A stretch of DNA of 64,000 bases from Candidatus Thalassarchaeum betae (GTDB taxonomy: Archaea > Thermoplasmatota > Poseidoniia > Poseidoniales > Thalassarchaeaceae), in contig JAKUUP010000005.1 of assembly GCA_022447095.1 (NCBI GenBank), positions 2,065-66,064 of the forward strand, read 5' to 3'. Each line of letters opens with the position of its first letter. Within the stretch, counting starts at the first letter, position 1. The position numbers were made by a program, and so were the translations under genes. Positions 809 to 47,855 of the stretch are shown here, piece by piece. The notes beneath the pieces are model-generated. The model worked only from the letters and a program-made list of their open reading frames with translations, did not search any database and was not told the origin of the DNA.

Positions 809-1093
809 TTGATGCCTGTCCCGTCTCGGCCAGTGTCGATGGCCGACCTTCAGGTGTCCGAGATTCGTGGACTCCCGGTGATTATGCCGAGTGGCAGGTT
901 GCTCGGGACCGTCCACGACACCGTCATAGATACTGATGGGTGGACCTGCACGCACATTTTCGTCGCCGACCCTCCAGCCGATCTTGTCGAGGGGCGAATC
1001 CACGTCGCCGTACCGTGGAACTGGGTTCGCTCGATCGGGGACGTCGTAATCCTGCGCTGGTTCCCTCCGACCCCGATTCCTCGCAAGTTGTGA
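809..1093 (+). CDS. PRC-barrel domain protein (alternative start at 839, MADLQV...)
   Basis: Small protein with the PRC-barrel signature (L.G..V....G..LG.V.D...D.DG..........VPW..V..IGD.VIL). Confidence 0.6.
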   Translation: MMPVPSRPVSMADLQVSEIRGLPVIMPSGRLLGTVHDTVIDTDGWTCTHIFVADPPADLVEGRIHVAVPWNWVRSIGDVVILRWFPPTPIPRKL

Positions 1094-2246: not shown

Positions 2247-4646
2247 GTGCGCCGAGCGTCCGCCAGCCTGCTAATCGCCCTGCTGCTGGTCAGCGCAGCT
2301 CCATTGGCACAGGCCGACTCCAAGGGAGTCATCTCCTGTCTCAACGCAGATCTCACGATGATGCCTGCCAACTGGGATATCGGAAATCAATCCTGCGTCC
2401 GCGTCGACCTCGGAGAACTGGAGCCCGGCGAGACGCTGTCGTTCGACATCACCTCCGACGAACTCATCGACATCCTGCTCTTCTCGGTCAACTCGATTTC
2501 CGTCTACCAGAACGAGCAGGCCTACAGGAGCAACTCAATCTGGGAGAGCGACTCCGTCTTCGAGAGTTTCAACGGCACAGGAGAATGGCACTGGACCGTA
2601 CCCGATGACCGTGACATGACCCGCTGGTACCTCGTTCTTGACAACCTCGCGCATCCACAGGACGGGGGCGGAGGGGCTCAGGGTGGAACTGACGCCTCAG
2701 TCAACCTCGACTCAGGAATCGTCTCACCCGCACCATTCACTCTAGTCGACACCATAGTGCGACTCGAAATCGGAGGACACTCGATACTCCACGGTCCATT
2801 CCTCGTCGACGCAGGCACACAGGTCAGAATCGACGCGACGACGATGGAAGGGGCTCCGGACGTCTTCCTGATGACAGAGTCCCAAGTGGCCCTTTACGAG
2901 GCCGGCGGCACCGCGGCCTCTCGCGTAGAGGGCACCGACATGCTCCTCATCATGACCGAGCGTCACATGGTCTGGCTCGTGCCCGAGACGTACGAGGGCA
3001 CCGATCTCTATCTTGTGGTTGACAACAGGGCAGGTCCGTCAGGAGGCGGCGCCGGGACTCAGGCAATCGCCACCACCGTCACACTCTCACTCACCCCCAT
3101 ACTGGAGCCGACCATCGGAGGAGGAATCTCCCTAGATGTCGTCGACGTGGGAGCCATCATCACCCTAGATGCCTCAGAGACTCCTAACCGCTCCGGCCAG
3201 ATACTCACCTCTGGATTCAAGTGGGACACCAACGCGGACGGTGTCGACGATACTATCGGCTCTACCGTCAACGTCAGTTGGTCAGACCCGACGAACATTA
3301 CCGTCAGACTCACCGTCGTATCCACAGACGGTCGCAGTGCGAGCGTGTATCAGGAAATCGAGGTCAGTGATATCTCCGAACCAGAGGTCAGCATCGGAGT
3401 CACCGCTGTCCTCGAGCGTACCTACGGTGACAACGTCATCCTGAGTGGGCAGGTCAGTGACAACTGGGGAATCGAGACAATCGAGTGGCTCGTCGACGAA
3501 CAACTCGTCCGATCCAATGCCGGAGACGATGAGGGTGCGACAGTATACAGCCACTCATTCGACTCCAGTTATGCGGCTGGGTCCCACACGGTCACCCTCC
3601 GCGCCACTGACCTCTCTGGCAGGGTGGCCGAGGATATCGCCAGCATTACTCTCTACGACTCGACACCTCCAGTGATCGGAATTTTCGTTGACGAGATATC
3701 CCTGCAGATTGGGCAGACATTCCGCTTTGAGGCCAATGTCACTGATGCTGAGTCTAACGACCTTCTCTTCTCTTGGGACTTTGACGACTCGGTCGACTCG
3801 GACGCGGATGGCGACCCTAGGAACGACGCCGACTCCTACGGTGACTCGGTGCTGTGGAGCTATGAGAAATCGGGCCCACAGTCGGTGGTCTGCCACATTG
3901 AGAACGATGCCGGGCTAGTCAGTGAATTCGAGATTCTCGTCAATGTGATGAGCGGCTCCGAAGACGATGGCGACTACGACCTGATGACCATGGGCATGAT
4001 TGGCCTTGCAGCCCTCATCGGCTTGCTTCTCATCGCGATGCTGTCTTGGCGAATCATCTCCAACCGCAGGCTGGCCACTCTTGTAGCACAGCAGGAGGAG
4101 ACCGAGGAAGCACCCACGACCGCTCCATCGGCGGACGAGCAGAAGGCGATGTGGGGCGGAGGGGGCGGCACGGGCGTATCAGTCCCAGAGTCAACCCCTC
4201 AGATTTTCGGCGACGTCTCCGGCGGGATGTCAGGGGTCACCGCTGATATTTCAACAGCGATGGGGGAGCCCGAGGGAGGCGAGATAGACCCCGACATCGC
4301 GGCACTGCTGGAGTCGGCTAGGCAGTCAGAGTCGGAACCTGCTTCCGGTGCCGCCAACGATTTGCTGTCCGCCTTTGAGAGCGACGACACCGTCGAGAGG
4401 GAAGATGTCGAGTTCTCGCACGAAGGAAGAACCGAGGAGGAAACCTCGACATGGGCTCCTGGTGAGGAAGGGGGAGATGTCTTCCAACCGGCCGATGAAA
4501 CGGAGCCCGAGGCGCAGGACCGGACCGTTCGCCAGAACTGCTCATCATGCGAGAAAATGTTCGAAGTCGATCTGCCGGAGGGCGTCGATGCCGCTAGAAC
4601 CGCATGCCCGCATTGCGACTCGATAGAATCGATCAGCCTCGACTGA
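2247..4646 (+). CDS. Large secreted acidic surface protein (type-I membrane topology) with a cytoplasmic C-terminal C4 zinc-ribbon tail
   Basis: Signal peptide MRRASASLLIALLLVSAAPLAQA; ~570-aa acidic ectodomain with Ig/PKD-like beta-rich segments; a single TM (LMTMGMIGLAALIGLLLIAMLSW); ~200-aa acidic tail ending NCSSCEK...ACPHCDS (CxxC-18-CxxC). Confidence 0.7.
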   Translation: MRRASASLLIALLLVSAAPLAQADSKGVISCLNADLTMMPANWDIGNQSCVRVDLGELEPGETLSFDITSDELIDILLFSVNSISVYQNEQAYRSNSIWESDSVFESFNGTGEWHWTVPDDRDMTRWYLVLDNLAHPQDGGGGAQGGTDASVNLDSGIVSPAPFTLVDTIVRLEIGGHSILHGPFLVDAGTQVRIDATTMEGAPDVFLMTESQVALYEAGGTAASRVEGTDMLLIMTERHMVWLVPETYEGTDLYLVVDNRAGPSGGGAGTQAIATTVTLSLTPILEPTIGGGISLDVVDVGAIITLDASETPNRSGQILTSGFKWDTNADGVDDTIGSTVNVSWSDPTNITVRLTVVSTDGRSASVYQEIEVSDISEPEVSIGVTAVLERTYGDNVILSGQVSDNWGIETIEWLVDEQLVRSNAGDDEGATVYSHSFDSSYAAGSHTVTLRATDLSGRVAEDIASITLYDSTPPVIGIFVDEISLQIGQTFRFEANVTDAESNDLLFSWDFDDSVDSDADGDPRNDADSYGDSVLWSYEKSGPQSVVCHIENDAGLVSEFEILVNVMSGSEDDGDYDLMTMGMIGLAALIGLLLIAMLSWRIISNRRLATLVAQQEETEEAPTTAPSADEQKAMWGGGGGTGVSVPESTPQIFGDVSGGMSGVTADISTAMGEPEGGEIDPDIAALLESARQSESEPASGAANDLLSAFESDDTVEREDVEFSHEGRTEEETSTWAPGEEGGDVFQPADETEPEAQDRTVRQNCSSCEKMFEVDLPEGVDAARTACPHCDSIESISLD

Positions 4647-4700
4647 TCCCCTAGTCTACAAACGATGCAGAGGACGTTCCTGTAGGGCAATACCCTATAG

Positions 4701-4719
4701 CGCACCTCTAGGAGGTGCG
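4701..4719 (+). promoter_or_regulatory. Hairpin that sequesters the Shine-Dalgarno sequence of the downstream giant gene
   Basis: cgcacctc-tag-gaggtgcg forms a perfect 8-bp stem. Its 3' arm contains GGAGGTG (a strong SD) 4-10 nt upstream of ATG 4723. Confidence 0.3.
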
Positions 4720-4722
4720 AGC

Positions 4723-7700
4723 ATGACCAGCACCTCTGTACGGCTCGTGCATCGAGCTCCTTCGGTGTCTCATTCACATACCCTAATGATGGTCCTACTC
4801 TTCCTATTCCCCGTCGTTTCACCAATCGCCAGCGTCAGCGGTGAGGCTAGAATAGAATCGCAGGACTTTGAGATTCTAGATCGACTATCGGAAGTATTGG
4901 AGGAGCGACAGGAGGTTCTGGATGGCAACTCCGTTGGGCAGATGGCCGGTCCGACAATCGAAGGCATCAGCAACTCAGTCACTCCTACCGGCTCGGCCGA
5001 TCCCCTCGCAGATGTCGATGGCGCTATCGAAGGGGCGACGATGGTGGTCACGAGACCCCCGGATCCAGTACACCCCGGTCCTTACCAACTCCTCGTCAAT
5101 CCCGGCAATAGTCCTCCCGGACAGGTGGATAACATATGGCAGACTCTGCTGAATATTACCGACTACGTAATCTGGACTCAGTACACCAACCTCGACGGCG
5201 ATGTCATCGAGAGTTTCGAGGTCGTCACATTTTCCTCCAATCTACTGTCGCTCTTGGATGTCAACTCAGATCCGCTTCTGCACGAAGTCGATATCGACAA
5301 CGACGGCGACGAAGACATCGAGGTCGGCCTCAAAATCGCATGGGAGTTCCTTGGCGGCTGGGGTGTCGAAGATGGGGTGCTTTGGATTGAGCCGGGGATA
5401 TCCTACTCGGTCAAGGTTCTGGACTCAAGCCAGAACGACCCAGACTGGGATAACATGGACAAACTCCAGGTCTCCTTGATCAAAGCCTTCGCCTATTCCG
5501 GACCGGACTCCATCCTCGCACTGGGAGAGGGGGAGACCTACATCTGGGTCGTTGATTCCCGATTCACGACCCAGCCCAACGATTTCACACTGAGGGTAGG
5601 GATAGAGAGATTCTACTTCGACGTCACAGGCGCTGGGTCGGACCTCATAGTCACGTTAATCCAGGCCCTTACACTCGGCATCATCAACTCGGGCGTCGAT
5701 GAGTCTGGAATCACTTTCGCATCGATTTCCGCCCCTTATGCCATAGGAATCAGCAATGACGGACAGTCAACCTGCCCCGACCGATACTCGCCGGACGAAC
5801 TGCTGTACGCCTCACACCTAGAACTGAACTGCGGCGTTGCCGCAGGCTTCGGGTACCTACACTTCTCACCACCCGATGACAGTGGAGACAGAGACATGTG
5901 GGAACTCGCTTACATTGAACTCTCACTACACCCCAACAAGGATGCAGTCATACTCCCCGAACAGGTAGAAATCGTCATCAGGACTGATAGTGTTCTGCCA
6001 GAGAATGGATTGGTCGACGGAGAAGATGGTCTGGACACTATCGAGTACTGGGCTGACGAGAGGACTGATCTCCATATCCACTTCCACGAGAACCGTTCTG
6101 AACTCCCTCCAGAGGAGTCCGCAGAAGGTGCTCGAGGCAATGTCACTGACTCCGTCGGCTGGCTACGCGGGATGCCCGCTGGGTCTCTGTCCGAGGGCGA
6201 GATCCAGAGAGTTTTCACGATGCTGGGTTCCGATGGATCGCAGTCGGAATTGCCCGGTGATCTGCCAGAGCGCCTAGGCCTGATTATCGGAATCAAAAAC
6301 TTCTCTCGCGACGACAGTCAGAATGTCAACGACCCAACATTGCCAGTTAATCCGGCCAATCCTCCGAAGACGCTTATTCTACTACGTTCCGTCCAATCCG
6401 TCGAGGAGGTTGATTACGACTCGTGGTTCCTCCGCGAGGGTGCCGTCGACGATCACAGGAAGATCCACATCTCGGCGAGGAACGTGCCTACGGCTGCGGT
6501 CTTATACGGCTCCTTCGAACTGGGAGGCAGCGACGAGGTCGAAACGAGTTTTGATTCGGAGGAAAGTCTGGACTTCGTATCGAAGATTGTGGACAACGTC
6601 CTGATTAACATAGTCGATTTGTTCCTAGACATCGGCAACGTGCTGAATGATGTCCCTTCGGCCGTAGTCGATGTCATCAGCGGCGGTGTCGATGGCACCA
6701 GCGGTCTTGAGGGACGCTCTTTTCACCTCCTGCTCAACGACAACTGGCTCGTCACCCGATCTGACATGCCAATCGACTACATTTCAGTTCAGATAGGCTC
6801 CAGCACCCATCCGGTCTTGCCCGGCGACCATCTGATGCTGGCTAAGGACAACGACCTCGCTACGGTCGATGGCCGCGATGGTCCCGTAGAGCCGCTGGTT
6901 CCGGTAGCGGCCAGCATCAGATTCAGCGGACTGATCGCATTCTCGTTAGTCGATGACAACGATCTCGACGAGCAAACCGTGACACTCCGAACGTCATCGG
7001 ACGAGTCGTTCGGATTCACCTACATCGAACATCCTCCGACTATACTCGAAGGAGCCTCCTACCAATCGCTGATCATGAGTGACATACCCGACAATCTCTC
7101 CACTCACATCACCCCCGAGAGAATGCAATACACGGCCTCGACCGGCATCGATTCAATCGTCTACGCCGGCCTAGATGGAACCCAGCGCCAAGCCGCGCAT
7201 ATCATTGGAGTTCCAGACAGTTTCACCACAACCTTCGGCACAGTAACCGGCTGGTCCTCCCTCACACCGATATCAACCATTGAGGCCCAAGTCAGCAACG
7301 CTTCCGAGCCGGTGACCATGACCGGTGACCACTTCCTGTTTCACCACGACCCGGTCTCCGAGACTTCGACAATCTCGACTAGGCTGACAGGTCTCAGTGA
7401 GGTCAGTTGGACAGCTCCCGACGAGGAAGGCGCTACCGGTCCAGCGGGCCGCGGCACCGCCCATATGTCAGTGGCCGGAGACAGACAACTGAGCATCAGT
7501 GTCGATCATGCACCCACACAAGGCGACGACGCACTATCTGTGCTCGCATCCATCGATCCGCTCCCTTCCTCGGTATCGGTCGAGATACCCACGGGGGCAG
7601 ACGCTGAATCAGCACTCGCAGTCCCAGAGTTCAACACATCCAATGGACTGTCTGGGGTCGCTTTCTTCATCAGTGGGTTCGCCAACCTCGGCCGCTCTGT

Positions 7701-9111
7701 CAACAGCGTCCTCTCAGGGATCACCTCAGACATATCCACGGGTGCCGAGTCCGAGGACGATGGCTTCTCCTTCGGTATCAAATTGAACGCTGACGCCGCT
7801 TTTGATCTCACAGTCGAGGCCATCCATGGAGATAGTTCTGTAGATGCTCCCCCGTGGGTCCACGGCATAGCGTTTCAATCATCACCCAACGGCATAGCAG
7901 ATGGCTTCCACCTCAGGACATGGCTGCCTAACTTGCCTCCGACCATCGACCTCTCAGTCAGCAGAGCACCCAACTTCAACGGTCAGGACTGGGCAATCAG
8001 CATGGGACTCGAGGATTGGGTGCCCGCGCACAGCGAGTTGATGATTCACGCATATGGAATCAACGGCCAGGATATGTTGCTCACTCTACAGGGCCTGAAT
8101 GTGGGTGAGCCAACTTCGCTGCTCATCGATTCGATATTTGAGATTAGGACGACAGGCGGTATCACAGAGGTTGGGACTACGACCCACTACTGGATGTCCA
8201 ATCGACTTGATTGGGTTCACGCCCTATTGATCAACAGGGAAGCCGGCAGTAGAACTGAGATTATGATACATGATATCCCAGAGGCAGTCGACCTGCAGTC
8301 CAGCATCGGAACCGCGGTATCGCTCGACATGACGGTGCCCGAAGAATATCGGCGTGATGGCACCGCAGTAGGGGCCATCATGCTGCAGCAGATGCAGTGG
8401 ATGGAGGATGCCTGGTGGCCTGCGACAGTCTTCCTAACCGATGTGCCCGGTTCGATCAGCCTATCGACGGCACCTGACCTGACTTTCGACATCACGCAGA
8501 ACATAGCCTTCCAAGGATCGCCAGTCCTCGACTTCACGGCCTCCGATGAAGGCATGTCCCTCTACATCGAGGCTTTCGGAAGGGCCATCAACAAGAAGGG
8601 CGACACCATATTACTGGCTCAGGGAATGACCGATAGGATGGAAATCGGTCCTACCAGTGACTTTGGTCTGACCATCAGATCAAGTGGCGAGGGCGTGGAA
8701 AGACTCTATCTCCGTATGAGCAACGTCCCAGCGACTCCGCCCATCGTCCTCGACGAGATGGAGGCCATGGGGGAGAACCTGCGGAAGGCCACCATACACG
8801 TCAGGGAGATTGTAGGACAGTACAGCATCATTGAGGTCGATGACGTGCAGGGCGGGAGAATCATCGCCTCGGCTCGAGCGTCTGCTCAAGTCGAAGGCAC
8901 CGACTGGGACCTCCGAGGTGTTCTACTGGACGCTCAGATAACCGGAGGAGTCCCGACGGGAACCACCCTCGGCGTGAATGGCATGGCTTCCGACTTGTCA
9001 CTATTGAACATGGTTCCGGGACTTGACGGCTCCACGAAGCACGTGATGGTGCCCGAACCTTTCTCCTCTGCGATTCTGACTTTGCTGGCGACTCTACTGG
9101 GGGGTACCTGA
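4723..9111 (+). CDS. Giant (1462-aa) secreted acidic surface protein with a hydrophobic C-terminal anchor preceded by a PEP motif
   Basis: N-terminal hydrophobic signal/anchor (LMMVLLFLFPVVSPIASVSG); very acidic, Asp/Ser/Thr-rich body; C-terminus VPEPFSSAILTLLATLLGGT, which resembles PEP/PEF-CTERM sorting signals. SD GGAGGTG lies upstream. Confidence 0.7.
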   Translation: MTSTSVRLVHRAPSVSHSHTLMMVLLFLFPVVSPIASVSGEARIESQDFEILDRLSEVLEERQEVLDGNSVGQMAGPTIEGISNSVTPTGSADPLADVDGAIEGATMVVTRPPDPVHPGPYQLLVNPGNSPPGQVDNIWQTLLNITDYVIWTQYTNLDGDVIESFEVVTFSSNLLSLLDVNSDPLLHEVDIDNDGDEDIEVGLKIAWEFLGGWGVEDGVLWIEPGISYSVKVLDSSQNDPDWDNMDKLQVSLIKAFAYSGPDSILALGEGETYIWVVDSRFTTQPNDFTLRVGIERFYFDVTGAGSDLIVTLIQALTLGIINSGVDESGITFASISAPYAIGISNDGQSTCPDRYSPDELLYASHLELNCGVAAGFGYLHFSPPDDSGDRDMWELAYIELSLHPNKDAVILPEQVEIVIRTDSVLPENGLVDGEDGLDTIEYWADERTDLHIHFHENRSELPPEESAEGARGNVTDSVGWLRGMPAGSLSEGEIQRVFTMLGSDGSQSELPGDLPERLGLIIGIKNFSRDDSQNVNDPTLPVNPANPPKTLILLRSVQSVEEVDYDSWFLREGAVDDHRKIHISARNVPTAAVLYGSFELGGSDEVETSFDSEESLDFVSKIVDNVLINIVDLFLDIGNVLNDVPSAVVDVISGGVDGTSGLEGRSFHLLLNDNWLVTRSDMPIDYISVQIGSSTHPVLPGDHLMLAKDNDLATVDGRDGPVEPLVPVAASIRFSGLIAFSLVDDNDLDEQTVTLRTSSDESFGFTYIEHPPTILEGASYQSLIMSDIPDNLSTHITPERMQYTASTGIDSIVYAGLDGTQRQAAHIIGVPDSFTTTFGTVTGWSSLTPISTIEAQVSNASEPVTMTGDHFLFHHDPVSETSTISTRLTGLSEVSWTAPDEEGATGPAGRGTAHMSVAGDRQLSISVDHAPTQGDDALSVLASIDPLPSSVSVEIPTGADAESALAVPEFNTSNGLSGVAFFISGFANLGRSVNSVLSGITSDISTGAESEDDGFSFGIKLNADAAFDLTVEAIHGDSSVDAPPWVHGIAFQSSPNGIADGFHLRTWLPNLPPTIDLSVSRAPNFNGQDWAISMGLEDWVPAHSELMIHAYGINGQDMLLTLQGLNVGEPTSLLIDSIFEIRTTGGITEVGTTTHYWMSNRLDWVHALLINREAGSRTEIMIHDIPEAVDLQSSIGTAVSLDMTVPEEYRRDGTAVGAIMLQQMQWMEDAWWPATVFLTDVPGSISLSTAPDLTFDITQNIAFQGSPVLDFTASDEGMSLYIEAFGRAINKKGDTILLAQGMTDRMEIGPTSDFGLTIRSSGEGVERLYLRMSNVPATPPIVLDEMEAMGENLRKATIHVREIVGQYSIIEVDDVQGGRIIASARASAQVEGTDWDLRGVLLDAQITGGVPTGTTLGVNGMASDLSLLNMVPGLDGSTKHVMVPEPFSSAILTLLATLLGGT

Positions 9112-9112
9112 A

Positions 9113-9694
9113 ATGGGTCTGCTGGAGAGATTGAGGCAAGATGGGAGTAATGAGGAGGAAGACGAGAGAATCGCTCATGATGTGCTGGAAAAAATCGAGG
9201 AAGGTGCTAAGGAAATCGAGGAACGTGCTAGGAGACACATCTCACCGACCAGAGTAATCTTCGCTTCAATCGCAGCCATTCTTCTGCTCGCTACGAGCCT
9301 GTTCGTTTTGACGTGGTTAGTCCCGTACGACAGGGTCAGCGTCGATGTGGTGTATCGTCAGGGTGGTCCCGGACACGTCGTGCTGGTAGAACTGGACAAC
9401 AAGGGCAGCAGGACGATCGAGGACATCAATCTGCACATCAGGTTCATTGATTCGAATGGTATCGAAGTCGATCGATCAATTTTCAATAAGGAGTCCTTGC
9501 CGGCGCATACCTCAGTCGCAGGGGACGACCTCGAGCTGCTCGTCAACGGGACTTCGGTATGGGAGAATTACACAATCGAGATACTGCTGAACTACGAGTA
9601 CTATGGAGGCGATCGCTCCGAGCGTTGGACCCACGATGTAGGAGAGTGGACGATGGAGATGTTCGTCGACAAGTCGCCGTACCGCTTCCTCTGA
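9113..9694 (+). CDS. Small bitopic membrane protein, translationally coupled to the giant gene
   Basis: Starts 2 nt after the upstream stop codon. Acidic N-terminus, one TM (VIFASIAAILLLATSLFVLTWLV), and a beta-rich C-terminal domain. Confidence 0.5.
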   Translation: MGLLERLRQDGSNEEEDERIAHDVLEKIEEGAKEIEERARRHISPTRVIFASIAAILLLATSLFVLTWLVPYDRVSVDVVYRQGGPGHVVLVELDNKGSRTIEDINLHIRFIDSNGIEVDRSIFNKESLPAHTSVAGDDLELLVNGTSVWENYTIEILLNYEYYGGDRSERWTHDVGEWTMEMFVDKSPYRFL

Positions 9695-9744
9695 GCAGTA
9701 TCAAGCATGACTATTGATGGGTTCAAAGAACCCATACGCTCAAA

Positions 9745-12700
9745 TTGGTTACGAGAAGGCGAGAGCCGATGACAAAGCGTTCAGTCTCAGTCGTGATGGC
9801 GGTTTTGTTACTTTCATACCTGCCTATTCTCGACCAGTCATCGTCCTATGAAAACTCCCCCGAAGAGGGCTTGGCACTGGATTCCGCAGTGGAGAGAATA
9901 GAGATATCTCCAGACCCTAACAGCATCCAGAACCTTGGCGCTCCAAACATCTACTCGGGCTATGAGGACATCCGTTCCCTCCGTGCTGACTCAACGATTG
10001 GAGTCTACACCGGGGCCGGACTCCTTCCCGGTGTCGCGATGAGCTCTAAATTGGCCGAGACGCGCTCCGATCTGGCTATCGTCCTAGTCGATGGTGAGGC
10101 CGGCCTCTGGGATGCCAGACAGGAGATCCTAGATGCAGTCGAAGTCGAGATAAGGTCTACCATCCCACCATCGGGATTCCTCGTCCAAGGTTCCCCCGGA
10201 CAACTCGCTGAGTTGACTCGCATCTCCGTGGTCAGCGCCGTACACGATGTCCCAGCCGGACTGTTGGTGCACCCGATGTTCTGGGAGGCTAATGGAGATG
10301 AGACCATCCTCGTTGAGGTACTCGGCTGGAAGGACTCCGAACTCATTCGTCACAGCGAGCCCGGACTAGGCTTGGACGACTCGCTCAGCATCGCTGCCTC
10401 GCTATGGCTCGAAGAGGCATGGTCGCCCGAGCAAGGTAGGATTTGGGGTGAGATTGGTATCAGCGATATCTCTCAGATTGTCAGGCATCCATCGGTGGCT
10501 TACGTGGCACCGCTGCCATTGCTGATGCTACATAACGACGAGGCCCGTGACCACATGGGAATCAACACCGTGGATAACACCTTCATCACCGGGCTAAACG
10601 GCAGCGGACAGAAGATAGCCGTAGGCGACTCCGGACTCGACAACGATCATGGTGACTTCACCGGTAGAGTCTCGGGGCTGACATCTGTCACTCCAGGCGA
10701 CTCATCCACCGCAGATCCTTCTGACGGGCACGGAACTCACGTTGCCTGCACCGTCCTCGGTGATGGCTACCGCAGTAGTGGGACCTACCAAGGAATCGCT
10801 CCAGAGGCCCTGCTTTACTTCCAGGCGATGGAGGATGACGACACCGGAGCCCTCTACAGTTATGGCATCAACAGCATGCTTAACTCGGCCTACAACAACG
10901 GTGCTCGCTTACACACCAACAGTTGGGGCGCAGGCAGTGGTTCAGGCAGCTACTCAACTCAGTCCGAGGACGCCGACGACCGCACCTCTACCTGGGACCA
11001 GTACTGGTCTTACCAAGGGATGACGGTGTTGTTCGCCGCTGGTAACGAGGGCAACGACGGGGTCTCCCCTCCAGGCACCGCGAAGAACGTCATCACCATC
11101 GGCGCCCATCAGAACCGATACAGCGGCGCTCCGGACGATATGTACTACTGGAGCAGCCGCGGACCGACCGACGATGGCAGGATCAAGCCGGATCTGGTCG
11201 CCCCGGGAGAATACGTTCGCTCTTGTAAGGCTCAGGAGGCGCAGGACGCAGAAGGCTCTTGGAGCAACAACTGGTATCTTGAATATACAGGGACATCGAT
11301 GGCAACGCCAGCAGCGGCCGGTGCCGCCGTCCTCGTCAGAGAGTACCTGATGGAGGTCGCTGGCAGACAGGCCCCTCAGAGTGCCCTCGTCAAGGGACTG
11401 CTAATCCTAGGTGCCATGGACATGGGCACCCGGGACATCCCCAACAACAACGAGGGTTGGGGAAGGGTCAATCTGGTCGACTCGCTAATTCCAGACAACG
11501 ATGTCGGCATATTCGTGGATGACCGCTCACGCCTCTCCAGCGGGCAGGTGAGCGAGTACACCTTCGACGTCACCCGCGCCGGCGAGCCGATGAAGGTGGT
11601 TCTGACTTGGTCCGACTACCCCGGCTCTTCATCCTCCTCAAGCCAACTCAGAAACGACCTCGACCTAGAGGTGATTTCGCCTAACGGGCAGGTCACATAC
11701 AAGGGGAACGCCTTCGTCAACGGCCACTCAGTCACTGGCGGTACCAAGGACTCCACCAACAACGTAGAAGTCGTCCTGATGGATAACGCCGCGACCGGCA
11801 CGTGGACAGTCCGCGTGCGCGATGCGCAGCATGGTGGTGGGCGTACATGGCAACCCTACGCGCTCGCAGTCCGTGGAGTGAACGTGAACGACCTGACCCC
11901 CGACCCAGCATTCGTACAGAACTCATTCGAGATTACCTCTGCGATTCCACAGGTCGGCGAGGAGGTCGATGTCACTGTGACTGTTCAGAACCTAGGTGCC
12001 GGTTCCGTAGCCGAAGTCGCTGTGATTGCAAGAGCCGACAGTGAACTACTCGGTACTCAAACTCTGAGCATGTCCCCAGGAGAGTCTGCCGAGTTGTCTT
12101 GGAACTGGACCCCCGACCATGAGGGAGAGGTGGAGTTCACTTTCCACATCGACCCGAGCGATACGGTAGAGGAGACCTCGGAATCGAACAACTACTTGTC
12201 ACAGACGGTGGTGGTCAGCGCACCTGGGGTTCGCGTTACCACCGAGCAGGACACCATGACGCTGGCAGATGCGACCGACAGTTCGACGACTTGGGAGTTG
12301 TTCCTGATGAACACGGCTCTGTTTGAGACCAACGCCTCCATTGTCGTCACCGATCCCGTGCGAGTACAGGACGGCGTCGAGTTCGACTGGTTCACATCTT
12401 TCACCTCGAATACCTTCAACCTCGAAGCCGCCGAGATGACAACCATTGGCCTGACGGTAGTCCATCCGGCCCCACCTCCGCCCGGCCTCTATCGGATGGT
12501 GGTGACCGGGACCGACATTGAGAACGATATCGATTCTGAACTGATGCTCTACTTCGAGGTCCCGATACTGGCTGAGGCCGACATAGTCCTCCCCGGAGAG
12601 CAGTTCCTAGTCAGTCCACTCGAGCCGACAGATCTCCAGATACTGGTCTTCAACGATGGCAACGGTGCTCAGGCCTACGATGTCGAACTCGTCTCCCCTG

Positions 12701-14271
12701 CTGGCTGGCACCTCGGTCTAGATACTCTCGGGGCCTTCGCAGGCTCCTCGCACGGCTCCACAGGCACGCTCGCAAAGGACGCCGGCCGGGCCGTTGACAT
12801 CACAATCAACCCACCGGGCGCGATGATTCCAGCCGACTCTGTCTACGACGCGGCCATCATAGTCCACTCTCGTGTAAGCTCCGACTCCTGGAGTGCAGAC
12901 ATCCAATTAGTCGTCAAGGTGATAGACCAAGTCAGTACCACTCCCTCATCAGATGGCATTGAGCATGACATCGCACCTGATGCTCTTCTGGAGTTTGAGA
13001 TTGAGTTCAACAACCAAGGCAACCGCTTGATAGTCTTCCAACCTTATGTGAGGAGCATTCCTGGTGGCTGGGAAGTCTTAGGCGGTCTGTACCCAGCCCA
13101 CGTCCCAGCCGGTGAGACAGCAGTTTGGCCGGTCTCCCTGCAAGGCAACGGTGTAGCGGTCAGCGGCGATCTTCAATTGAGGTTCGCGACCGAGGACGGC
13201 TACTACGTGGATTGGAACAGGACCTTGGACGTTCTATCCGGAGCCATGCCGACTTTGGATTTCCACCTTGTCGCCCTCCCGGATGGAACCACCGCCGATT
13301 ACCCGCTTGGAGTGCCCGCTCATCCAGTCGGGGCACCGGGGTTCGATCTCGGTTGGACGGTTACCAACGAAGGCTCCACCACATGGCGTCCTATGACCTA
13401 CATGGAAGTGCCTAACGATGATTGGTCTTCGACGTGCGTCGGTCCATCCACCCTCTCCGCCGGTGCCACTTCTACGGTCTGGTGCACCGTCGTCATCCCA
13501 CTGTCAGCCGAAGCCAACTCCGAGCCGATTGTGACTCTGGTAATGGAGGGCGAGGGAGTTGAGGTGAGTGACTCAATCTCGCTGTTGGTCGAGTCCGTAG
13601 CCCGAGTGAGTTGGACCGTCACCAACCAGCAGGTCGCACATGAGGGCTACGAGACCGTGCTCTACCTCGACCTTCAGAATGTCGGCAACTCGGATATCGC
13701 CCATGTCCTGCAAGCCTCTGGTCCGGATGATTGGAACGCACTGATTCTCGATGGGGTGGTTGTCAATCTGCGCCCTGGCGAGACGCGCAATCTCCAACTC
13801 GGATTCACACCCAACACTGGGGTGGATGGAACACTAGTGGTGGAACTCGGTGATTCCAACGATATCGAGGACTCCACCTTCACCATAGAGATCGACGTGC
13901 TGCCAGCGAGGATAGAGGAGGGCATGTCCGCTCTCGAGATGGTACTTGTTGCAACCCTCATCCTCGCCTTCGCCGGAGGAGTCGGATTCTTCGTTTACTC
14001 TAGGACTGGAGCCGATAAGGCCAGTCTGATCAAAACTGAGACACTCAGCAAGATTGCGGACAGCTTCGGGCTTGCCGAGGAGGAGAGAGTGGAGGGCAGC
14101 GGCGTTCCCTGCTGGATATGCAGCCAAGACATCGTCCTCGGCGGGGCGTGGGCTTGCTCTGAGTGCGGAGCGAGGTATCACAAGGGTGGCCAGGTCGATG
14201 GCTGTGACATCGTTTCGATGGGACACTGCATGCACTGCGATGCCGACGTGGACGGGCTTGTAGAAGCGTGA
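9745..14271 (+). CDS. Membrane-anchored subtilisin-like serine protease (peptidase S8) with beta-sandwich repeat domains and a cytoplasmic Cys/His-rich zinc-binding tail
   Basis: Signal peptide. Catalytic triad motifs in order: Asp (AVGDSGLDNDHGDF), His (DGHGTHVACTVLGDG), Ser (GTSMATPAAAGAAVLV). Post-catalytic VLTWSDYPG...NDLDLEV beta-sandwich. CARDB-like repeats, TM (LEMVLVATLILAFAGGVGFFVY), and a tail with CWIC, CSEC, C-x7-CMHC. Confidence 0.85.
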   Translation: MVTRRREPMTKRSVSVVMAVLLLSYLPILDQSSSYENSPEEGLALDSAVERIEISPDPNSIQNLGAPNIYSGYEDIRSLRADSTIGVYTGAGLLPGVAMSSKLAETRSDLAIVLVDGEAGLWDARQEILDAVEVEIRSTIPPSGFLVQGSPGQLAELTRISVVSAVHDVPAGLLVHPMFWEANGDETILVEVLGWKDSELIRHSEPGLGLDDSLSIAASLWLEEAWSPEQGRIWGEIGISDISQIVRHPSVAYVAPLPLLMLHNDEARDHMGINTVDNTFITGLNGSGQKIAVGDSGLDNDHGDFTGRVSGLTSVTPGDSSTADPSDGHGTHVACTVLGDGYRSSGTYQGIAPEALLYFQAMEDDDTGALYSYGINSMLNSAYNNGARLHTNSWGAGSGSGSYSTQSEDADDRTSTWDQYWSYQGMTVLFAAGNEGNDGVSPPGTAKNVITIGAHQNRYSGAPDDMYYWSSRGPTDDGRIKPDLVAPGEYVRSCKAQEAQDAEGSWSNNWYLEYTGTSMATPAAAGAAVLVREYLMEVAGRQAPQSALVKGLLILGAMDMGTRDIPNNNEGWGRVNLVDSLIPDNDVGIFVDDRSRLSSGQVSEYTFDVTRAGEPMKVVLTWSDYPGSSSSSSQLRNDLDLEVISPNGQVTYKGNAFVNGHSVTGGTKDSTNNVEVVLMDNAATGTWTVRVRDAQHGGGRTWQPYALAVRGVNVNDLTPDPAFVQNSFEITSAIPQVGEEVDVTVTVQNLGAGSVAEVAVIARADSELLGTQTLSMSPGESAELSWNWTPDHEGEVEFTFHIDPSDTVEETSESNNYLSQTVVVSAPGVRVTTEQDTMTLADATDSSTTWELFLMNTALFETNASIVVTDPVRVQDGVEFDWFTSFTSNTFNLEAAEMTTIGLTVVHPAPPPPGLYRMVVTGTDIENDIDSELMLYFEVPILAEADIVLPGEQFLVSPLEPTDLQILVFNDGNGAQAYDVELVSPAGWHLGLDTLGAFAGSSHGSTGTLAKDAGRAVDITINPPGAMIPADSVYDAAIIVHSRVSSDSWSADIQLVVKVIDQVSTTPSSDGIEHDIAPDALLEFEIEFNNQGNRLIVFQPYVRSIPGGWEVLGGLYPAHVPAGETAVWPVSLQGNGVAVSGDLQLRFATEDGYYVDWNRTLDVLSGAMPTLDFHLVALPDGTTADYPLGVPAHPVGAPGFDLGWTVTNEGSTTWRPMTYMEVPNDDWSSTCVGPSTLSAGATSTVWCTVVIPLSAEANSEPIVTLVMEGEGVEVSDSISLLVESVARVSWTVTNQQVAHEGYETVLYLDLQNVGNSDIAHVLQASGPDDWNALILDGVVVNLRPGETRNLQLGFTPNTGVDGTLVVELGDSNDIEDSTFTIEIDVLPARIEEGMSALEMVLVATLILAFAGGVGFFVYSRTGADKASLIKTETLSKIADSFGLAEEERVEGSGVPCWICSQDIVLGGAWACSECGARYHKGGQVDGCDIVSMGHCMHCDADVDGLVEA

Positions 14272-14277
14272 TTGAAC

Positions 14278-14297
14278 CGCGACCCTAAGGGGTCGCG
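14278..14297 (+). terminator. Perfect hairpin (8-bp stem cgcgaccc/gggtcgcg, loop taag) 7 nt after the subtilase stop
   Basis: Inverted repeat seen directly in the 67-nt intergenic spacer. Confidence 0.35.
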
Positions 14298-14338
14298 ATG
14301 CCCGAAGTCCTTAGAGGGGCGATTGAGTCGGAGCGACG

Positions 14339-17035
14339 ATGAAGCGTGATTCATCGGCCTCTGTGCTGACGGCTTTGCTGCTATTGACTATCATGTCACC
14401 ACTAGCCACCGCTGCAGTCTCAGTGTCGCTTTCTGCGAGTCCGACGGCCCAAGAGGCCACCACCGATGACGATGCAGAGTACGACATCATCGTGACTAAC
14501 GACGGCGATGAGGATATCTCGGTCACTTTGAGCACCCAGCAGGGTAACGACTGTAACGGCTTTTCATCCTCTTTGGACTCCTATCAGGTCTCAGTCGATG
14601 AGGGGACATCTGAGACGGTCGTACTGACTGTCTCTGTGAATGACCAGGCAGACGGTGACTGCGAGACCACCGTAAACGCTCAGGCTACAGCAGGTATCGG
14701 ATCGCCGGCCAACGACGATGTTACGGTAACCACGACTGCTGGTGACGGAGGCGGCCTATACTCGGTGAAACTCACTACCGACGAGCAGATGAAGACCTAC
14801 GGGGGCGAGGATAGCGATGAGGGCGATAGCGTTGCCTGGGATGTCGAAGTGGAGAACAATGGCGAGCAGCAGGCCAACGTCCAACTCGAGATGATATCAG
14901 ACAGCGATTGCGAGTCCGACACCCTCGATGCCACTGTGGATCCACAGGTCCTGCAGTTGGAGCCGGAGGACAAAGAGACCGTCGAGGTCACAGTCGAAGT
15001 TCCTGACGGTAGTTCCACCGAGGCAGGAGACCACTGCTTCATCCTCAGAGCAACGGTGACCAACGACCCTAACGCAGCAGATCAGGCTGAGGACAATATC
15101 ACACTCACTCTGAAGATTCCTGAGCGCAAGGAGTGCGACCCGAACCTCCAGTACACCTCACACAACCTCGACCCCGATGAATCTGCGACCAATTCCTTTG
15201 AGGTCGAGAATATCGGCAACACCGAGTGGACGGTGACGGCAAACGCCCAAGCCCATGATTCGGACCACGACATAACTGACTGGATAGACTTCAACAGCCC
15301 ACTCAGCAAACTGCTCTCCGAGCCCGGAGGCTCTCAGGACGGCCATACGTTCACCTTCTCAGTCACCCCTGACGACTCGGTCGAGTCGGGAACCCAAGTG
15401 GGTATCAGGATACAGGGGCGTGCTGGTACCGCTGTGGGCTGCGAGCAAACGCTCACTGTCACCGTGGGCCAGAGCCACGCCGCTACTATGACCCTGAGCA
15501 AGAACAAACTCTCAAACGTCGAACCAGGGAGCTCAGAAACGGTTTCGGTTCAGATAACCAACCTCGGCAACGGGATGGAAACTCTCTCAGTAGGCGCCAC
15601 AGGACTGCCTCCTGGCTGGCAGATATCCTTCTCCCAGAATTCGGTCACCGTAGGAAGCGTGCACTCCGGCAACAACAGGCAGACCATCAACGCCGAGGTC
15701 TTCGTGCCCGAGGATGCCAGCGCCGAGGATGAGACGGTGATCACCTTCACAGTCGGACGCGGCGGCGGCACCACTCCTTACGACACCAAGGACCTCACAG
15801 TTTCCGTCGCTGCCCGACATGACCTGACCACTTCGATCCTGTCGACCCAGCAGACGGGCCGCTCAGGGCAGACGGTGCAGTTCCCAATAGATGTCACCAA
15901 CTCGGGTAACATCCGTGACACCTTCAAACTCCTGACTTGCGACCCAGGTGACCAGACTGGATGCAACCAGCCGATGTGGGAATCATCCTACTCCGATAGT
16001 CAGGGCAACACGATCACGCAGGTAATCCTTGACCCCAGTCAGACTCAGACAGTGTACCTCGACATCCTCGTCGAGGGTGAGGAGGAGGCCGATTCAGCGA
16101 ACGTGCTCGCTCGAATCGCGATATACGGTACAACTGTAGTGGACGAGCATACTGTGAGCGTAATAGTCTCAAACTACAACTACGCCATGGCGATCACTGC
16201 GCAGAATCCTGGTGATATCCCTGATCAGATTGATGCTACTCTCCCACCAGGAGGCACCCTGACCACTGCATTCTGGGTCGAGAATACCGGTGATTACCCC
16301 GGTGGCGATACTGCCGTGATATCATTGAGCGGCATGGAGTCGTCAGTACTGCGGACAATTACCGTTGAGGGGGTGGAGATCGAGAGTACACTCTCTCTGG
16401 GAATGGGCGAGAGAGTGCTCATTGAAGTAGAGATAGAGATTCTCGATGGCGTGGCGAATGGCGTTTCTGGGGTAGTAAAAGTCAGCGCTTCATCAGAGAA
16501 GAACACTGCCCAGAGCACCTCAGTCGACCTGATTGTCGCAGTCATGACCATCCATGATCTCAGATTCACCCTTGAGGGAGAGGACGAGCAGACCGCAGAG
16601 TATCCAGACAAGGCCATCTTCATCTTGTATGTCACCAATCACGGCAACATACTCGAGACAGTACAGGTCCTGTCCAGTGAGTCACTCAGGGGTTGGTCGG
16701 TCGATGTGGTAGGTGAGGAGTTTGAACTTGAATCGGGGGAGACTCGGGAAGTCGAAGTGAGAGTCACTCCACCTAGCGATTTGCTTGATGATGACACCTA
16801 TCTTTTCACTCTGACCGTGCAGCCGGAAGACCTTGCTGTGGCAGGTCAGCCAATTGACCTGACAGTGATATCGGAGATGCCATCGTCGTTCATCGGCTTG
16901 ACTGAGGAGCAGGCTCAGGCACTGGTCTACGGCTCCATCATTCTCGGTGGGATTCTGGTCGTCGTCCTGTTCTTTCGTTCCCGCGCTGAAAATCGCAGAA
17001 TCGTGGAAGCGCTCGAAAATGAGTTCGAAGACTAG
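14339..17035 (+). CDS. Secreted cell-surface protein built from ~8 CARDB-like (NxGN) beta-sandwich modules, with a C-terminal TM anchor
   Basis: Signal peptide MKRDSSASVLTALLLLTIMSPLATAAV. Recurrent motifs VTNDGDEDI, VENNGEQQA, VENIGNTEW, ITNLGNGMET, VTNSGNIRDT, VENTGDYPG, VTNHGNILET. C-terminal TM (LVYGSIILGGILVVVLFF) and a short tail. Confidence 0.75.
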   Translation: MKRDSSASVLTALLLLTIMSPLATAAVSVSLSASPTAQEATTDDDAEYDIIVTNDGDEDISVTLSTQQGNDCNGFSSSLDSYQVSVDEGTSETVVLTVSVNDQADGDCETTVNAQATAGIGSPANDDVTVTTTAGDGGGLYSVKLTTDEQMKTYGGEDSDEGDSVAWDVEVENNGEQQANVQLEMISDSDCESDTLDATVDPQVLQLEPEDKETVEVTVEVPDGSSTEAGDHCFILRATVTNDPNAADQAEDNITLTLKIPERKECDPNLQYTSHNLDPDESATNSFEVENIGNTEWTVTANAQAHDSDHDITDWIDFNSPLSKLLSEPGGSQDGHTFTFSVTPDDSVESGTQVGIRIQGRAGTAVGCEQTLTVTVGQSHAATMTLSKNKLSNVEPGSSETVSVQITNLGNGMETLSVGATGLPPGWQISFSQNSVTVGSVHSGNNRQTINAEVFVPEDASAEDETVITFTVGRGGGTTPYDTKDLTVSVAARHDLTTSILSTQQTGRSGQTVQFPIDVTNSGNIRDTFKLLTCDPGDQTGCNQPMWESSYSDSQGNTITQVILDPSQTQTVYLDILVEGEEEADSANVLARIAIYGTTVVDEHTVSVIVSNYNYAMAITAQNPGDIPDQIDATLPPGGTLTTAFWVENTGDYPGGDTAVISLSGMESSVLRTITVEGVEIESTLSLGMGERVLIEVEIEILDGVANGVSGVVKVSASSEKNTAQSTSVDLIVAVMTIHDLRFTLEGEDEQTAEYPDKAIFILYVTNHGNILETVQVLSSESLRGWSVDVVGEEFELESGETREVEVRVTPPSDLLDDDTYLFTLTVQPEDLAVAGQPIDLTVISEMPSSFIGLTEEQAQALVYGSIILGGILVVVLFFRSRAENRRIVEALENEFED

Positions 17036-45861: not shown

Positions 45862-46890
45862 CTACGGATGAGGAGGGACCTCTGATGACCAGTTTTCCAT
45901 CTTGTTCAGACTGATGGTGACGTTGGTGATTTCACCGTCCTCCCAGTAGTCAACGGCGATGAAAGTGGGCCTATCATCAACTTCTTCCCAGCACCCCAGT
46001 GCTCTTTCGAGCAGGGTATCGTAGTCGTTGACCTCCTGAGCGCGTACAGGGTCAGCCAAGCCGAAGACGCTGGACAGCCAGTTGTTCAGGTGCCAAACCG
46101 GCTGTACCCCATCGCCCCTGCCGACCCTGCATGACATGTCGTCTTGCTCATCCTCACCGTATGGGGTGTCCCAGCTGTGCGTCCATGCATGGTGGAGCCA
46201 GGGATACCGCTCATCGTACTGGTAGTCCCAATAGACGACGAGGTCCGTACCGTTGAGCGCCATCTCGCCGATGCTTGGCCAAGGCTCGCCGGGAGTGTGT
46301 ACGAAGGTCCTATCGAGCATCCCCGTTTGGTTGAACAGAACCTCAAGATGCTCGCCCGGGACGTAGTTCTCCAGCAGCAGGCTGACCACGTCGCCACTAC
46401 TGTTATTCATCAGTGAGCTCAGATGCCTCAGCCAGGAGTATGCATCAACCTCGGAGTAGATGCACGGGTGTAAGAAGGTCGAATCGGGATCTCCGTGGCA
46501 AAATCGAACATCGTCGACGCTGGTATCGTCCTTGGACAGGTGATGCGTGTCGAGCATGTATGCACGAATCCCTCCATCCCACTGCGCCTGCAATGCGGTC
46601 TTGTGATTCATCGCCATCCAAACTCCGTCTTCGATGGTCGCGAACGAATTGTGAGTCTCGGGGAATGTGAAGTTGTCATACGAGCGTAGGCAATACTCGG
46701 CCTTGCCGTGGCATAGCAGGGAATCACTCGCATTCAGGGGGTCAAGACCATGTTCTCCCTCCCAGCCGTTCGGCAGACCATCTCCGTCATCGTCTGCGTA
46801 AGGATCGAGTTCCGCCCCCTCCTCATTACCAAAGCATCCTGACGAAATTAGACTGCAACCCACGAGAACAACCATCCATGGGTGCTTCAT
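45862..46890 (-). CDS. Lipoprotein with a PLC-like phosphodiesterase domain
   Basis: Lipobox-type signal MKHPWMVVLVGCSLISSGC and FPETHNSFAT (the H-N-S catalytic motif of the PI-PLC X-domain family). Confidence 0.5.
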   Translation of the reverse strand: MKHPWMVVLVGCSLISSGCFGNEEGAELDPYADDDGDGLPNGWEGEHGLDPLNASDSLLCHGKAEYCLRSYDNFTFPETHNSFATIEDGVWMAMNHKTALQAQWDGGIRAYMLDTHHLSKDDTSVDDVRFCHGDPDSTFLHPCIYSEVDAYSWLRHLSSLMNNSSGDVVSLLLENYVPGEHLEVLFNQTGMLDRTFVHTPGEPWPSIGEMALNGTDLVVYWDYQYDERYPWLHHAWTHSWDTPYGEDEQDDMSCRVGRGDGVQPVWHLNNWLSSVFGLADPVRAQEVNDYDTLLERALGCWEEVDDRPTFIAVDYWEDGEITNVTISLNKMENWSSEVPPHP

Positions 46891-47023
46891 GGTATGCAAT
46901 ACCGCGTTCCACTCATGAAATAATCGGATTTCACCCTCTTTGGGACTACCTGTCATGTTGCAGAGCGTGAAACGACTCGTCGGAAGGCACTAATCGGGAG
47001 AGCATGACCCCGCGAGGAGGAAG

Positions 47024-47854
47024 ATGGCGCGTAGAGGCACTCGAAAACTCGGTCTGTTCGGCCGTTGGTGGGAAAGTCAGAGGGACCGCCACTTCCAGAT
47101 AATCACCTACTCGACCATAATCTCGGTCGCCTGTCTGGTGTGGGGCTTCGTCTTCCTGTTCGTTCTCGGAGGCTATGGCGACCCGGAGCAGCAAGCGCTG
47201 GTACCGTGGAGTTGGCTAGCGTTAGTTGGCGGGCTCGTCGTAGCGTTCTACGTAGCACCCGAGTTTTTCGTCTACATGGGACAGCGTCAGATTCTTGAGG
47301 ACATCCTGCTGATTGACTCGCGTCCTGAGATCCTGCGTCGCAGGAAGGAGGCGGAGGACGCCGCAGACATGCTTGGCAAGTCCTACCAAGCGCGTCTGAT
47401 GGGCCTGTACCAGTTGCACAACATCAACATCGGCAAGAAGTACAAGGTCGAGTCCGTCGGTCCGATCAGAGATGACGACTCGTTCGACGAAGAGGATTTC
47501 ATCGAACTCCCATCGGTAACTGACTCGTGGTGGAGCACCAGTGACTCGACTCTCTCCAGACTCCTCCCCGGACTTTGGGTGCTGAGGAATCCGATGGCGA
47601 ACCGCGGTTTGATCACGGGGTTTTCGTTTACCACAATGCTGCTTCTGTCTAACAGCGTGTTCGGTATCTTCACTGGAGCCAGTGGCGAGAGAGACCACAC
47701 TCTAGACCTGACTGCATCTATTCACGAGATGGAGAGGATCTACGAATCTTCGCCGCATTACGACGTCATTAGCCTACTCTTCATCGTCGTATTCGCAACT
47801 CTTCTGTTGTCAACGCGACCTCACATTGAATCACCTAACAACGAGGAGGAGTGA
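47024..47854 (+). CDS. Membrane protein of unknown function
   Basis: SD GGAGGAAG upstream; four predicted TMs; acidic C-terminus. Confidence 0.5.
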   Translation: MARRGTRKLGLFGRWWESQRDRHFQIITYSTIISVACLVWGFVFLFVLGGYGDPEQQALVPWSWLALVGGLVVAFYVAPEFFVYMGQRQILEDILLIDSRPEILRRRKEAEDAADMLGKSYQARLMGLYQLHNINIGKKYKVESVGPIRDDDSFDEEDFIELPSVTDSWWSTSDSTLSRLLPGLWVLRNPMANRGLITGFSFTTMLLLSNSVFGIFTGASGERDHTLDLTASIHEMERIYESSPHYDVISLLFIVVFATLLLSTRPHIESPNNEEE

Positions 47855-47855
47855 C

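Follow-up and report, generated by a model that had tools for sequence, protein, structure and literature searches.

Marine Group II (MGII) archaea are among the most abundant archaea of surface oceans and are uncultured. Described systems with which their cell surface can be compared include SlaA/SlaB of the Sulfolobales, for which the slaA and slaB genes are adjacent, and tetrabrachion of Staphylothermus marinus, an archaeal surface-layer scaffold with a bound subtilisin-type protease, STABLE. Among the proteases of bacteria, the KP-43-type enzymes of Bacillus are free secreted proteins of ~430 amino acids (aa), and the lactococcal proteinase PrtP has a nutritional role. The subject of this study is a block of five genes, g1 to g5, which lies in a 64-kb stretch of contig JAKUUP010000005.1 (hereafter the window, by whose numbering positions are given). 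The window is archaeal chromosome, with an intron-containing tRNA, L15e, a PRC-barrel gene, an RNase Z-like gene, the nuo (complex I) operon, seryl-tRNA synthetase, CDC48 and similar housekeeping genes, and its g2 is 97% identical to that of a metagenome-assembled genome (MAG) of Candidatus Thalassarchaeum betae (Marine Group IIb, MGIIb; order Poseidoniales). Extracellular S8 peptidases have been predicted in all MGII MAGs, at 1-4 per MAG (PMC6864105), S08A peptidases make up >40% of MGII peptidase transcripts (PMC5069720) and an MGII subtilase is highly transcribed (PMC9723583); for the Thermoplasmatales, an unidentified exterior protein layer has been reported (PMC12448462). We consider it fairly probable that the block is a conserved envelope cluster in which the protease is tethered and g2 and g3 are coupled. 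The new part of the block is g2/g3, the protease being already known in kind. The genes are the following:

2247-4646, plus strand: g1, 799 aa
4723-9111, plus strand: g2, 1462 aa
9113-9694, plus strand: g3, 193 aa
9745-14271, plus strand: g4, 1508 aa, with a TTG start and an in-frame ATG 8 codons downstream
14339-17035, plus strand: g5, 898 aa

To assess the conservation of the block, g1-g5 and their neighbors were compared by tblastn with 21 genome loci (from GTDB species representatives) and 79 metagenome loci. In every one of these, as far as the contig reaches, the genes follow each other as L15e-(RNase Z)-g1-g2-g3-g4-g5-nuoABCD. This order holds down to identities of 40% for g2, ~32% for g1, ~40% for g4 and ~37% for g5, and a locus whose g2 is 31% identical (L025) retains g2-g3-S8-g5. 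Because full-length homologues of each of g1-g5 are present in ~100 related loci, and because the ratio of nonsynonymous to synonymous substitution rates (dN/dS) is 0.10-0.16 for g1-g5 in comparison with a relative whose copies of these proteins are 81-87% identical (nuoA and nuoC, 0.09), g1-g5 are real genes under purifying selection. The first-pass annotation of this DNA, which had been made from the sequence without database searches, had listed five co-directional plus-strand genes, and these are present with the positions and sizes that it gave. It had also allowed that the products might prove to be unrelated secreted enzymes with close characterized homologues and no conserved synteny; instead, gene order is strictly kept and only one of the proteins, g4, has homologues of that kind.

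The firmest connection within the block is that between g2 and g3. g3 is a small type-II (N-in) membrane protein with a weak match to FxLYD_dom, and it starts 1 nt past the stop codon of g2. An Arg lies on the N side of its N-terminal transmembrane (TM) helix, consistent with the N-terminus being inside and the C-terminal ectodomain outside. Its parts are as follows:

9113-9250, plus strand: acidic cytoplasmic N-terminus of g3
9251-9319, plus strand: TM helix of g3
9320-9691, plus strand: [ILV]-P-[RY] motif and CARDB-like beta-sandwich ectodomain of g3

In six further lineages, a small g3-like gene directly follows the g2 homologue in every case examined that has room for it on the contig (L022/L023/L024, L025, L026, L027, L029 and L109). 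These small downstream genes are homologous to g3, being joined to it by a chain of BLAST matches with E-values of 1e-42 to 2e-5 (5e-11 for L109), and they share a common plan that consists of a TM helix, the [ILV]-P-[RY] motif and a beta-domain of ~110 aa with a CARDB-like "N-x-G-[ST]". In addition, one open reading frame (ORF) of 1603 aa, P0303 (L028:3568-8379), fuses a g2-like to a g3-like protein. In P0303 the g2-type tail (VIFPNLFASVVVTLAP...) runs on as a full TM helix; after it come ~45 aa that form a Lys-rich, predicted cytoplasmic loop, another TM helix, the sequence IPRVEL and a g3-type domain that matches a g3 homologue at 5e-23 and the g3 of the window at 6e-7. The fusion implies a consistent topology, in which the body of g2 and the domain of g3 would both be outside, the tail of g2 would lie in the membrane and g3 would be N-in/C-out. 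Thus, P0303 supports a physical association of g2 and g3, and g3 is likely to be the membrane anchor partner of g2. A more modest explanation for the block is that its genes are adjacent only by shared descent in a stable core region and encode five functionally unrelated surface proteins. The flanking L15e and nuo genes are equally syntenic yet functionally unrelated, and the intergenic gaps, at 45-76 nt, leave room for separate promoters. We nevertheless consider mere adjacency very unlikely, given that g2 and g3 are all but contiguous, are linked in every lineage examined and have been fused once, and that g1-g5 share export, anchoring and compositional bias.

The g2/g3 pair is also found apart from the rest of the block. 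Several pairs have no protease nearby, their neighbors being Pus10, ABC transporters or ftsZ, and in L022, L023, L026 and L027, which are from other Thermoplasmatota, the pair has no adjacent protease and lies beside unrelated genes. g2 and g3 are therefore an older, self-standing pair that occurs without the protease in other Thermoplasmatota, and g4 and g5 join them only in Poseidoniales-type clusters; g1 is present wherever the upstream sequence reaches. These observations bear on whether the block is one surface machine for the capture and degradation of protein, with g1, g2 and g5 binding substrate or particles for g4 and no general coat. Such a machine would fit the constant company of the five genes in Poseidoniales, the occurrence of PKD and CARDB modules in secreted collagenases and proteases as well (ColH matches), and the protein and peptide heterotrophy and highly expressed S8 peptidases of MGII (PMC6864105, PMC5069720, PMC9723583). 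It is unlikely, however, in view of the four loci in which g2/g3 are without an adjacent protease, and of a second Poseidoniales locus in which they lie beside ftsZ (L109); the occurrence of pairs apart from the protease implies that the primary role of g2/g3 is independent of g4. The first-pass description of the block as a dedicated locus for the cell envelope and extracellular proteolysis, largely uncharacterized, is supported, the locus being syntenic and mostly uncharacterized, and falls short in that the block is not one homogeneous unit.

Some of the separate pairs have surroundings of their own. At L022:5354-9802 and L023:5379-9809, on two related contigs that are Thermoplasmata-like and whose g2 homologues are 80% identical to each other, the pair divergently adjoins two ABC-transporter ATPase/permease pairs, and one of the permeases carries an NPCBM_assoc (immunoglobulin, Ig-like) domain, a type found in g5. 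The pair at L109:10001-15861 is very distant (1806 and 148 aa, encoded by overlapping genes) and belongs to a cluster named "Ca. Poseidoniales archaeon" at NCBI; it is divergent beside ftsZ-secE-nusG-L11, and another S8 peptidase (792 aa) is encoded ~7 kb downstream.

The larger member of the pair, g2, is a giant protein whose family has no name. It is predicted to be secreted, and AlphaFold2 (AF2) models show it as rich in beta-meanders. We found no Pfam or NCBIfam match to it, no sequence relative in the PDB (with the single sequence or with profiles) and no significant fold match. The following features were recognized:

4723-4842, plus strand: signal peptide of g2 (by inspection)
5290-5316, plus strand: DxDxDG calcium-loop-like motif of g2
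9040-9108, plus strand: H-x3-P-E-P motif and short hydrophobic tail of g2

An exhaustive HMMER search with g2 returned 181 cluster representatives. Its relatives are full-length at 31-45% identity within Poseidoniales, and many others are full-length (1200-1840 aa) at 21-26%. The named ones are from Poseidoniales, Thermoplasmata and Thermoplasmatota MAGs, together with some that have the generic labels Euryarchaeota or Methanobacteriota, and all are annotated as hypothetical. Across 27 sequences of the family (~23% identity), the only invariant residues were Pro, Tyr, Trp and Gly, along with one near-invariant Asp, which may or may not correspond to the DxDxDG loop of the window. Since there are no conserved residues of catalytic type, g2 would be a structural protein rather than an enzyme. 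Comparison of six segments of g2 by hhalign identified just a short local repeat, between residues 679-743 and 845-897. The g2/g3 family, its tail and its fusion appear not to have been described before in the annotations and literature searched.

Nearly all full-length relatives of g2 share the ending [RKS]-H-h-h-h-P-[EAD]-P-h-[ST]-[ST], after which there are 9-17 residues, most of them hydrophobic and as a rule none of them basic. P-E-P is present in 60 of the 74 distinct tails of the family, most of which then have 9-17 residues that end in GG[DT] and contain no Arg or Lys. With P-E-P and then hydrophobic residues at the extreme C-terminus, conserved across the family, this tail resembles the PEP and PGF motifs of exosortase and archaeosortase substrates (PMC6098224), and we considered that it might be a sorting signal of that type. 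In that case the tail would be cut off, a lipid or another covalently attached anchor would take its place, and g3 would have a different role. The shared features are the Pro-containing P-E-P signature and the hydrophobic C-terminus. Unlike in PEP-CTERM and PGF-CTERM signals, however, the hydrophobic segment is too short (9-17 residues in most) and has no basic cluster, so that the tripartite C-terminus is lacking, and the motif is confined to one family, occurring on g2 homologues only among 3623 ORFs in the 1.9 Mb of DNA examined. No NCBIfam model matched the g2 tail at E<=10, there was no archaeosortase-like gene among the ORFs scanned in the 64-kb window, and in the P0303 fusion the tail simply continues, in the form of a TM helix, towards the g3 part. 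We therefore give little credence to a sorting signal. As the tail fails the features of such a signal, we favor a family-specific tail that would pair with the TM helix of g3.

In contrast to g2, the fourth protein of the block has close relatives of solved structure, and the first-pass claim that none of the large proteins could be assigned beyond the level of domains fails for it. The features of g4 are as follows:

9745-9843, plus strand: signal peptide of g4 (by inspection)
9844-10533, plus strand: probable pro-region of g4, ~230 aa, no Pfam match
10534-11823, plus strand: KP-43/SubHal-type catalytic domain and beta-jelly-roll of g4, with D295, H329 and S518 (Pfam, PDB)
11929-12201, plus strand: CARDB domain of g4 (Pfam, 3e-19)
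to ~13914, plus strand: further Ig-like stalk domains of g4
13930-13998, plus strand: TM helix of g4 (hydropathy)
14080-14244, plus strand: Cys/His-rich cytoplasmic tail of g4

The match to Peptidase_S8 (PF00082) has an E-value of 1e-42 and a score of 146.8 bits versus a cut-off of 21.8, and Pfam also identified a P_proprotein match (a P-domain-like module). Residues 264-693 match SubHal (5fax) and KP-43 (1wmd) at an E-value of 1e-76 over chain residues 1-416 of 433, including the C-terminal beta-jelly-roll, and the catalytic triad and oxyanion Asn align with those of SubHal: D295 (VGDSG), H329 (HGTHV), N (AAGNEG) and S518 (GTSMATP). By these criteria g4 is an intact S8A subtilase of the KP-43/SubHal type, predicted to be tethered to the membrane. 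The ~230-aa region before the catalytic domain is probably a pro-region; no recognizable I9-type propeptide was found, residues 1-272 having no Pfam match at E<=1. Downstream of the protease module there are ~700 aa of Ig-like domains, then the TM helix and the Cys/His-rich tail. Comparison of this tail with its equivalents in L009, L011-L014, L016 and L018 showed that it differs between MGIIb clades: it is zinc-finger-like (CWIC..CSEC..H..C..CxHC) only in the Thalassarchaeum clade, and other MGIIb genera have PGWLWDP..EEWV.DPEYD instead. g4 is one of the already catalogued extracellular S8 peptidases of MGII, to whose description the present analysis adds the tethered architecture and the constancy of the genes around it.

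KP-43 and SubHal are broad-specificity secreted proteases. This is relevant to the suggestion that g4 is a maturation protease or sheddase for its neighbors (pro-forms of g2, g1 or g5) rather than a nutritional enzyme. Its place directly after g2-g3 is strictly kept in Poseidoniales, and tethering would hold it near the other anchored proteins, as that suggestion would lead one to expect. However, the closest solved relatives of g4 were deposited as subtilase or protease, the g2/g3 pairs outside Poseidoniales have no linked protease, and no conserved processing site was identified in the block proteins, so that we regard a maturation role as quite improbable.

The two remaining proteins, g1 and g5, are assigned from their domain matches and hydropathy as Ig-repeat type-I membrane proteins of the PKD/CARDB type. 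The features of g1 are the following:

2247-2315, plus strand: signal peptide of g1 (by inspection)
2316-3131, plus strand: unassigned N-terminal ectodomain of g1, ~270 aa, with two YL(V)LDN..P..GGG repeats
3144-3956, plus strand: approximately three PKD/Ig domains of g1 (Pfam, profile search)
3993-4061, plus strand: TM helix of g1 (hydropathy)
4539-4622, plus strand: CxxC..CPxC zinc ribbon of g1, at the end of an acidic cytoplasmic tail of ~194 aa

The PKD_4 match of g1 scored 35 bits versus a Pfam cut-off of 27, and its profile matches the PKD domains of ColH and KIAA0319L over residues 307-570; the N-terminal 275 aa had no Pfam or PDB match. The zinc-ribbon cysteines (CxxC-17-CPxCGS; weak Zn_ribbon_8 match) are invariant in all 20 of the 20 MGIIb orthologues. 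The features of g5 are the following:

14339-14413, plus strand: signal peptide of g5 (by inspection)
14414-16888, plus strand: ectodomain of g5, with approximately eight Ig-like (CARDB/NEW3-type) domains (Pfam)
16919-16978, plus strand: TM helix of g5, then an 18-aa cytoplasmic tail (hydropathy)

Pfam matches of g5 are to NPCBM_assoc (2.6e-11) and FixG_C (4e-10), and it passes the NCBIfam model NF041740, choice-of-anchor T (choice_anch_T), with 81.6 bits versus a cut-off of 70 in three stretches, this being a family without known function. Its match to the putative S-layer family NF033506 (NCBIfam) was below threshold, and no sequence relatives were found in the PDB.

Several properties are common to most of the five proteins. 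Sec-type signal peptides are present on g1, g2, g4 and g5 (by inspection; AQA|D, VSG|E, ATA|A), and g1, g4 and g5 have one C-terminal TM helix each, with cytoplasmic tails of ~194, ~90 and 18 aa, respectively, as judged by hydropathy. The C-terminus of g2 is a hydrophobic tail of 13-16 residues without a basic cluster and has no canonical TM helix. Thus, the earlier statement that four of the proteins have signal peptides and C-terminal anchors is correct for the signal peptides and for the anchors of g1, g4 and g5, and does not apply to the anchor of g2. The ectodomains had also been called very acidic and beta-rich. The acidity is borne out, with isoelectric points (pI) of 4.05-4.7 for g1-g5 versus a median of 5.2 for the window, and it is mainly due to a scarcity of Lys and Arg (together 3.9-4.6% in g1, g2, g4 and g5 and 10.4% in g3; window median 9.9%). 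The beta-richness is seen for g2 in the AF2 secondary structure and is only implied for g1, g4 and g5 by Ig-type Pfam matches. N-x-S/T sequons were counted against shuffled sequences: g5 has 1 versus 8.3±2.4 expected and g4 has 4 versus 9.7±2.8, and there was no depletion in g1, g2 or g3. As for modules shared among g1-g5, there was only a weak similarity of the g4 stalk to g5.

Taken together, these results lead us to propose that the block is a core envelope cluster of the Poseidoniales, vertically inherited and with a fixed place that has the L15e/RNase Z genes on one side and the nuo operon on the other. Sec would export all five products, and these would be presented on the outside of the single membrane. 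g2 and g3 would form an ancient two-component surface complex, in which the giant beta-sheet protein g2 would be the exposed body, its short H-x3-P-E-P hydrophobic tail would dip into the membrane beside the TM helix of g3, and the small beta-sandwich ectodomain of g3 would keep g2 at the surface. Rather than an enzyme, the complex would be a scaffold or coat with a structural function. It might be S-layer-like and form a lattice, or be an unordered layer such as the "exterior protein layer" of the Thermoplasmatales. g4 would be an active KP-43-type subtilase, spaced from the membrane by its Ig-like stalk, and might cut environmental proteins at the cell surface for peptide uptake, while g1 and g5 would complete the coat, with a possible part in the binding of substrates or particles. 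Judging by the zinc-ribbon tails that g1 and g4 have, and by the acidic ones on g1 and g3, the coat could be coupled to something inside the cell.

It is important to note that a number of points weigh against this proposal. Most of the genes are separated by 45-76 nt without recognizable archaeal promoters or terminators, so that the block may or may not be one operon, and in a core region of low recombination synteny can stay constant without g1, g4 and g5 being functionally coupled to g2/g3. For an exposed surface protein g2 is slow-evolving, and in this, as in the sequon depletion of g4 and g5, the block differs from many archaeal S-layer glycoproteins. Confidence in the AF2 models is only moderate (predicted local distance difference test scores, pLDDT, of 72-73), and the apparent lack of a fold relative could partly be model error. 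P0303 is a single ORF on one metagenome contig from the Joint Genome Institute (JGI), Ga0452210_071394, and the coat or lattice role is a reading of sequence, MGII being uncultured. Even so, a conserved cluster for the envelope, in which the protease is tethered and g2/g3 are coupled, is the best-supported reading, in that it is better supported than each of the four alternatives considered above. The specific role of g2/g3 as a scaffold or S-layer-like structure is a possibility that we would place somewhat short of even. We also entertain, as a tentative and on balance doubtful idea, that g2/g3 could be a hitherto unrecognized envelope system of the whole phylum Thermoplasmatota, accounting for both the "exterior protein layer" of the Thermoplasmatales and the coat of MGII, with a new beta-meander fold and a "split anchor" (the H-x3-P-E-P tail paired with the TM helix of a partner). 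In the Poseidoniales, such a system would have drawn the major extracellular protease, together with two Ig-repeat proteins, into a single fixed cluster. A connection to the ~150-kDa major membrane glycoprotein of Thermoplasma acidophilum is also conceivable.

The intergenic gaps are 76 nt (g1-g2), 1 nt (g2-g3), 50 nt (g3-g4) and 67 nt (g4-g5), and g5 is followed by nuoA after 52 nt. Reading of the block's intergenic regions by eye revealed no clear TATA box or transcription factor B recognition element (BRE), and the block contains no DNA repeats of note and no Rfam elements. A GC-rich hairpin lies in each of two short gaps, at 9695-9744 after g3 (GGGTTCAAAGAACCC) and at 14272-14338 after g4 (CGCGACCCTAAGGGGTCGCG), and these could be transcript-processing or termination signals. 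Elsewhere in the window, positions 17-117 were identified as a tRNA by Rfam (56 bits, 101 nt) with no call from ARAGORN, consistent with an intron-containing archaeal tRNA, and a 94-aa ORF with a PRC-barrel domain (809-1093, plus strand; Pfam 7e-8) occupies the apparent 344-nt gap from L15e to the RNase Z-like gene. Acidic proteins poor in Lys and Arg (pI 4.3-4.4), with weak TSP3, FG-GAP or DUF4350 matches, are also encoded at 45862-46956 (minus strand), 47826-48722 (plus strand) and 60578-62281 (plus strand), the last of these before a DUF58 gene. They may be additional secreted or surface proteins.

With a genome size of ~1.4 Mb in MGIIb (PMC6864105), the cluster represents ~1% of the genome and is invariant across the lineages sampled. 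It supplies concrete candidates for the envelope of MGII and for the way in which the protease credited with driving their protein-based heterotrophy is displayed at the surface, and g2/g3 can be tested as a candidate for the protein layer reported on the surface of Thermoplasmatota (PMC12448462). If g2 and g3 are minor components, the block would merely be a set of well-conserved surface proteins around an already known protease.

The known systems resemble different parts of the block. The large, beta-rich exposed subunit (~1400 aa) and small, membrane-anchored beta-sandwich subunit of SlaA/SlaB (PMC6098224) are like g2 and g3, which are similarly predicted to be a large exposed and a small membrane-anchored subunit and are encoded side by side. 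No sequence or fold homology of g2/g3 to SlaA or SlaB was found, and as the anchor design differs as well, the likeness is a functional one only. Tetrabrachion offers a surface scaffold that is associated with a protease of the subtilisin family. It differs in that STABLE binds non-covalently to a coiled-coil stalk, in the organism and in the envelope architecture, and no homology to g2 is expected. For the protease module, the likeness to KP-43 and SubHal (PDB 1wmd, 5fax; MEROPS S8A) extends over nearly the whole mature enzyme, to which g4 adds the ~230-aa pro-region, an Ig/CARDB stalk of ~700 aa, the TM anchor and the Cys-rich cytoplasmic tail. In its overall design g4 is like the cell-envelope proteinases of Gram-positive bacteria (PrtP, the C5a peptidase ScpA and SpyCEP), in which an S8 protease is likewise carried on a long Ig/Fn-like stalk and fixed to the surface. 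The similarity to these is weak and confined to the catalytic domain (E-values of 1e-8 to 1e-6), they belong to a different S8 subfamily, and they are anchored by LPXTG and sortase, whereas the anchor of g4 is a TM helix.

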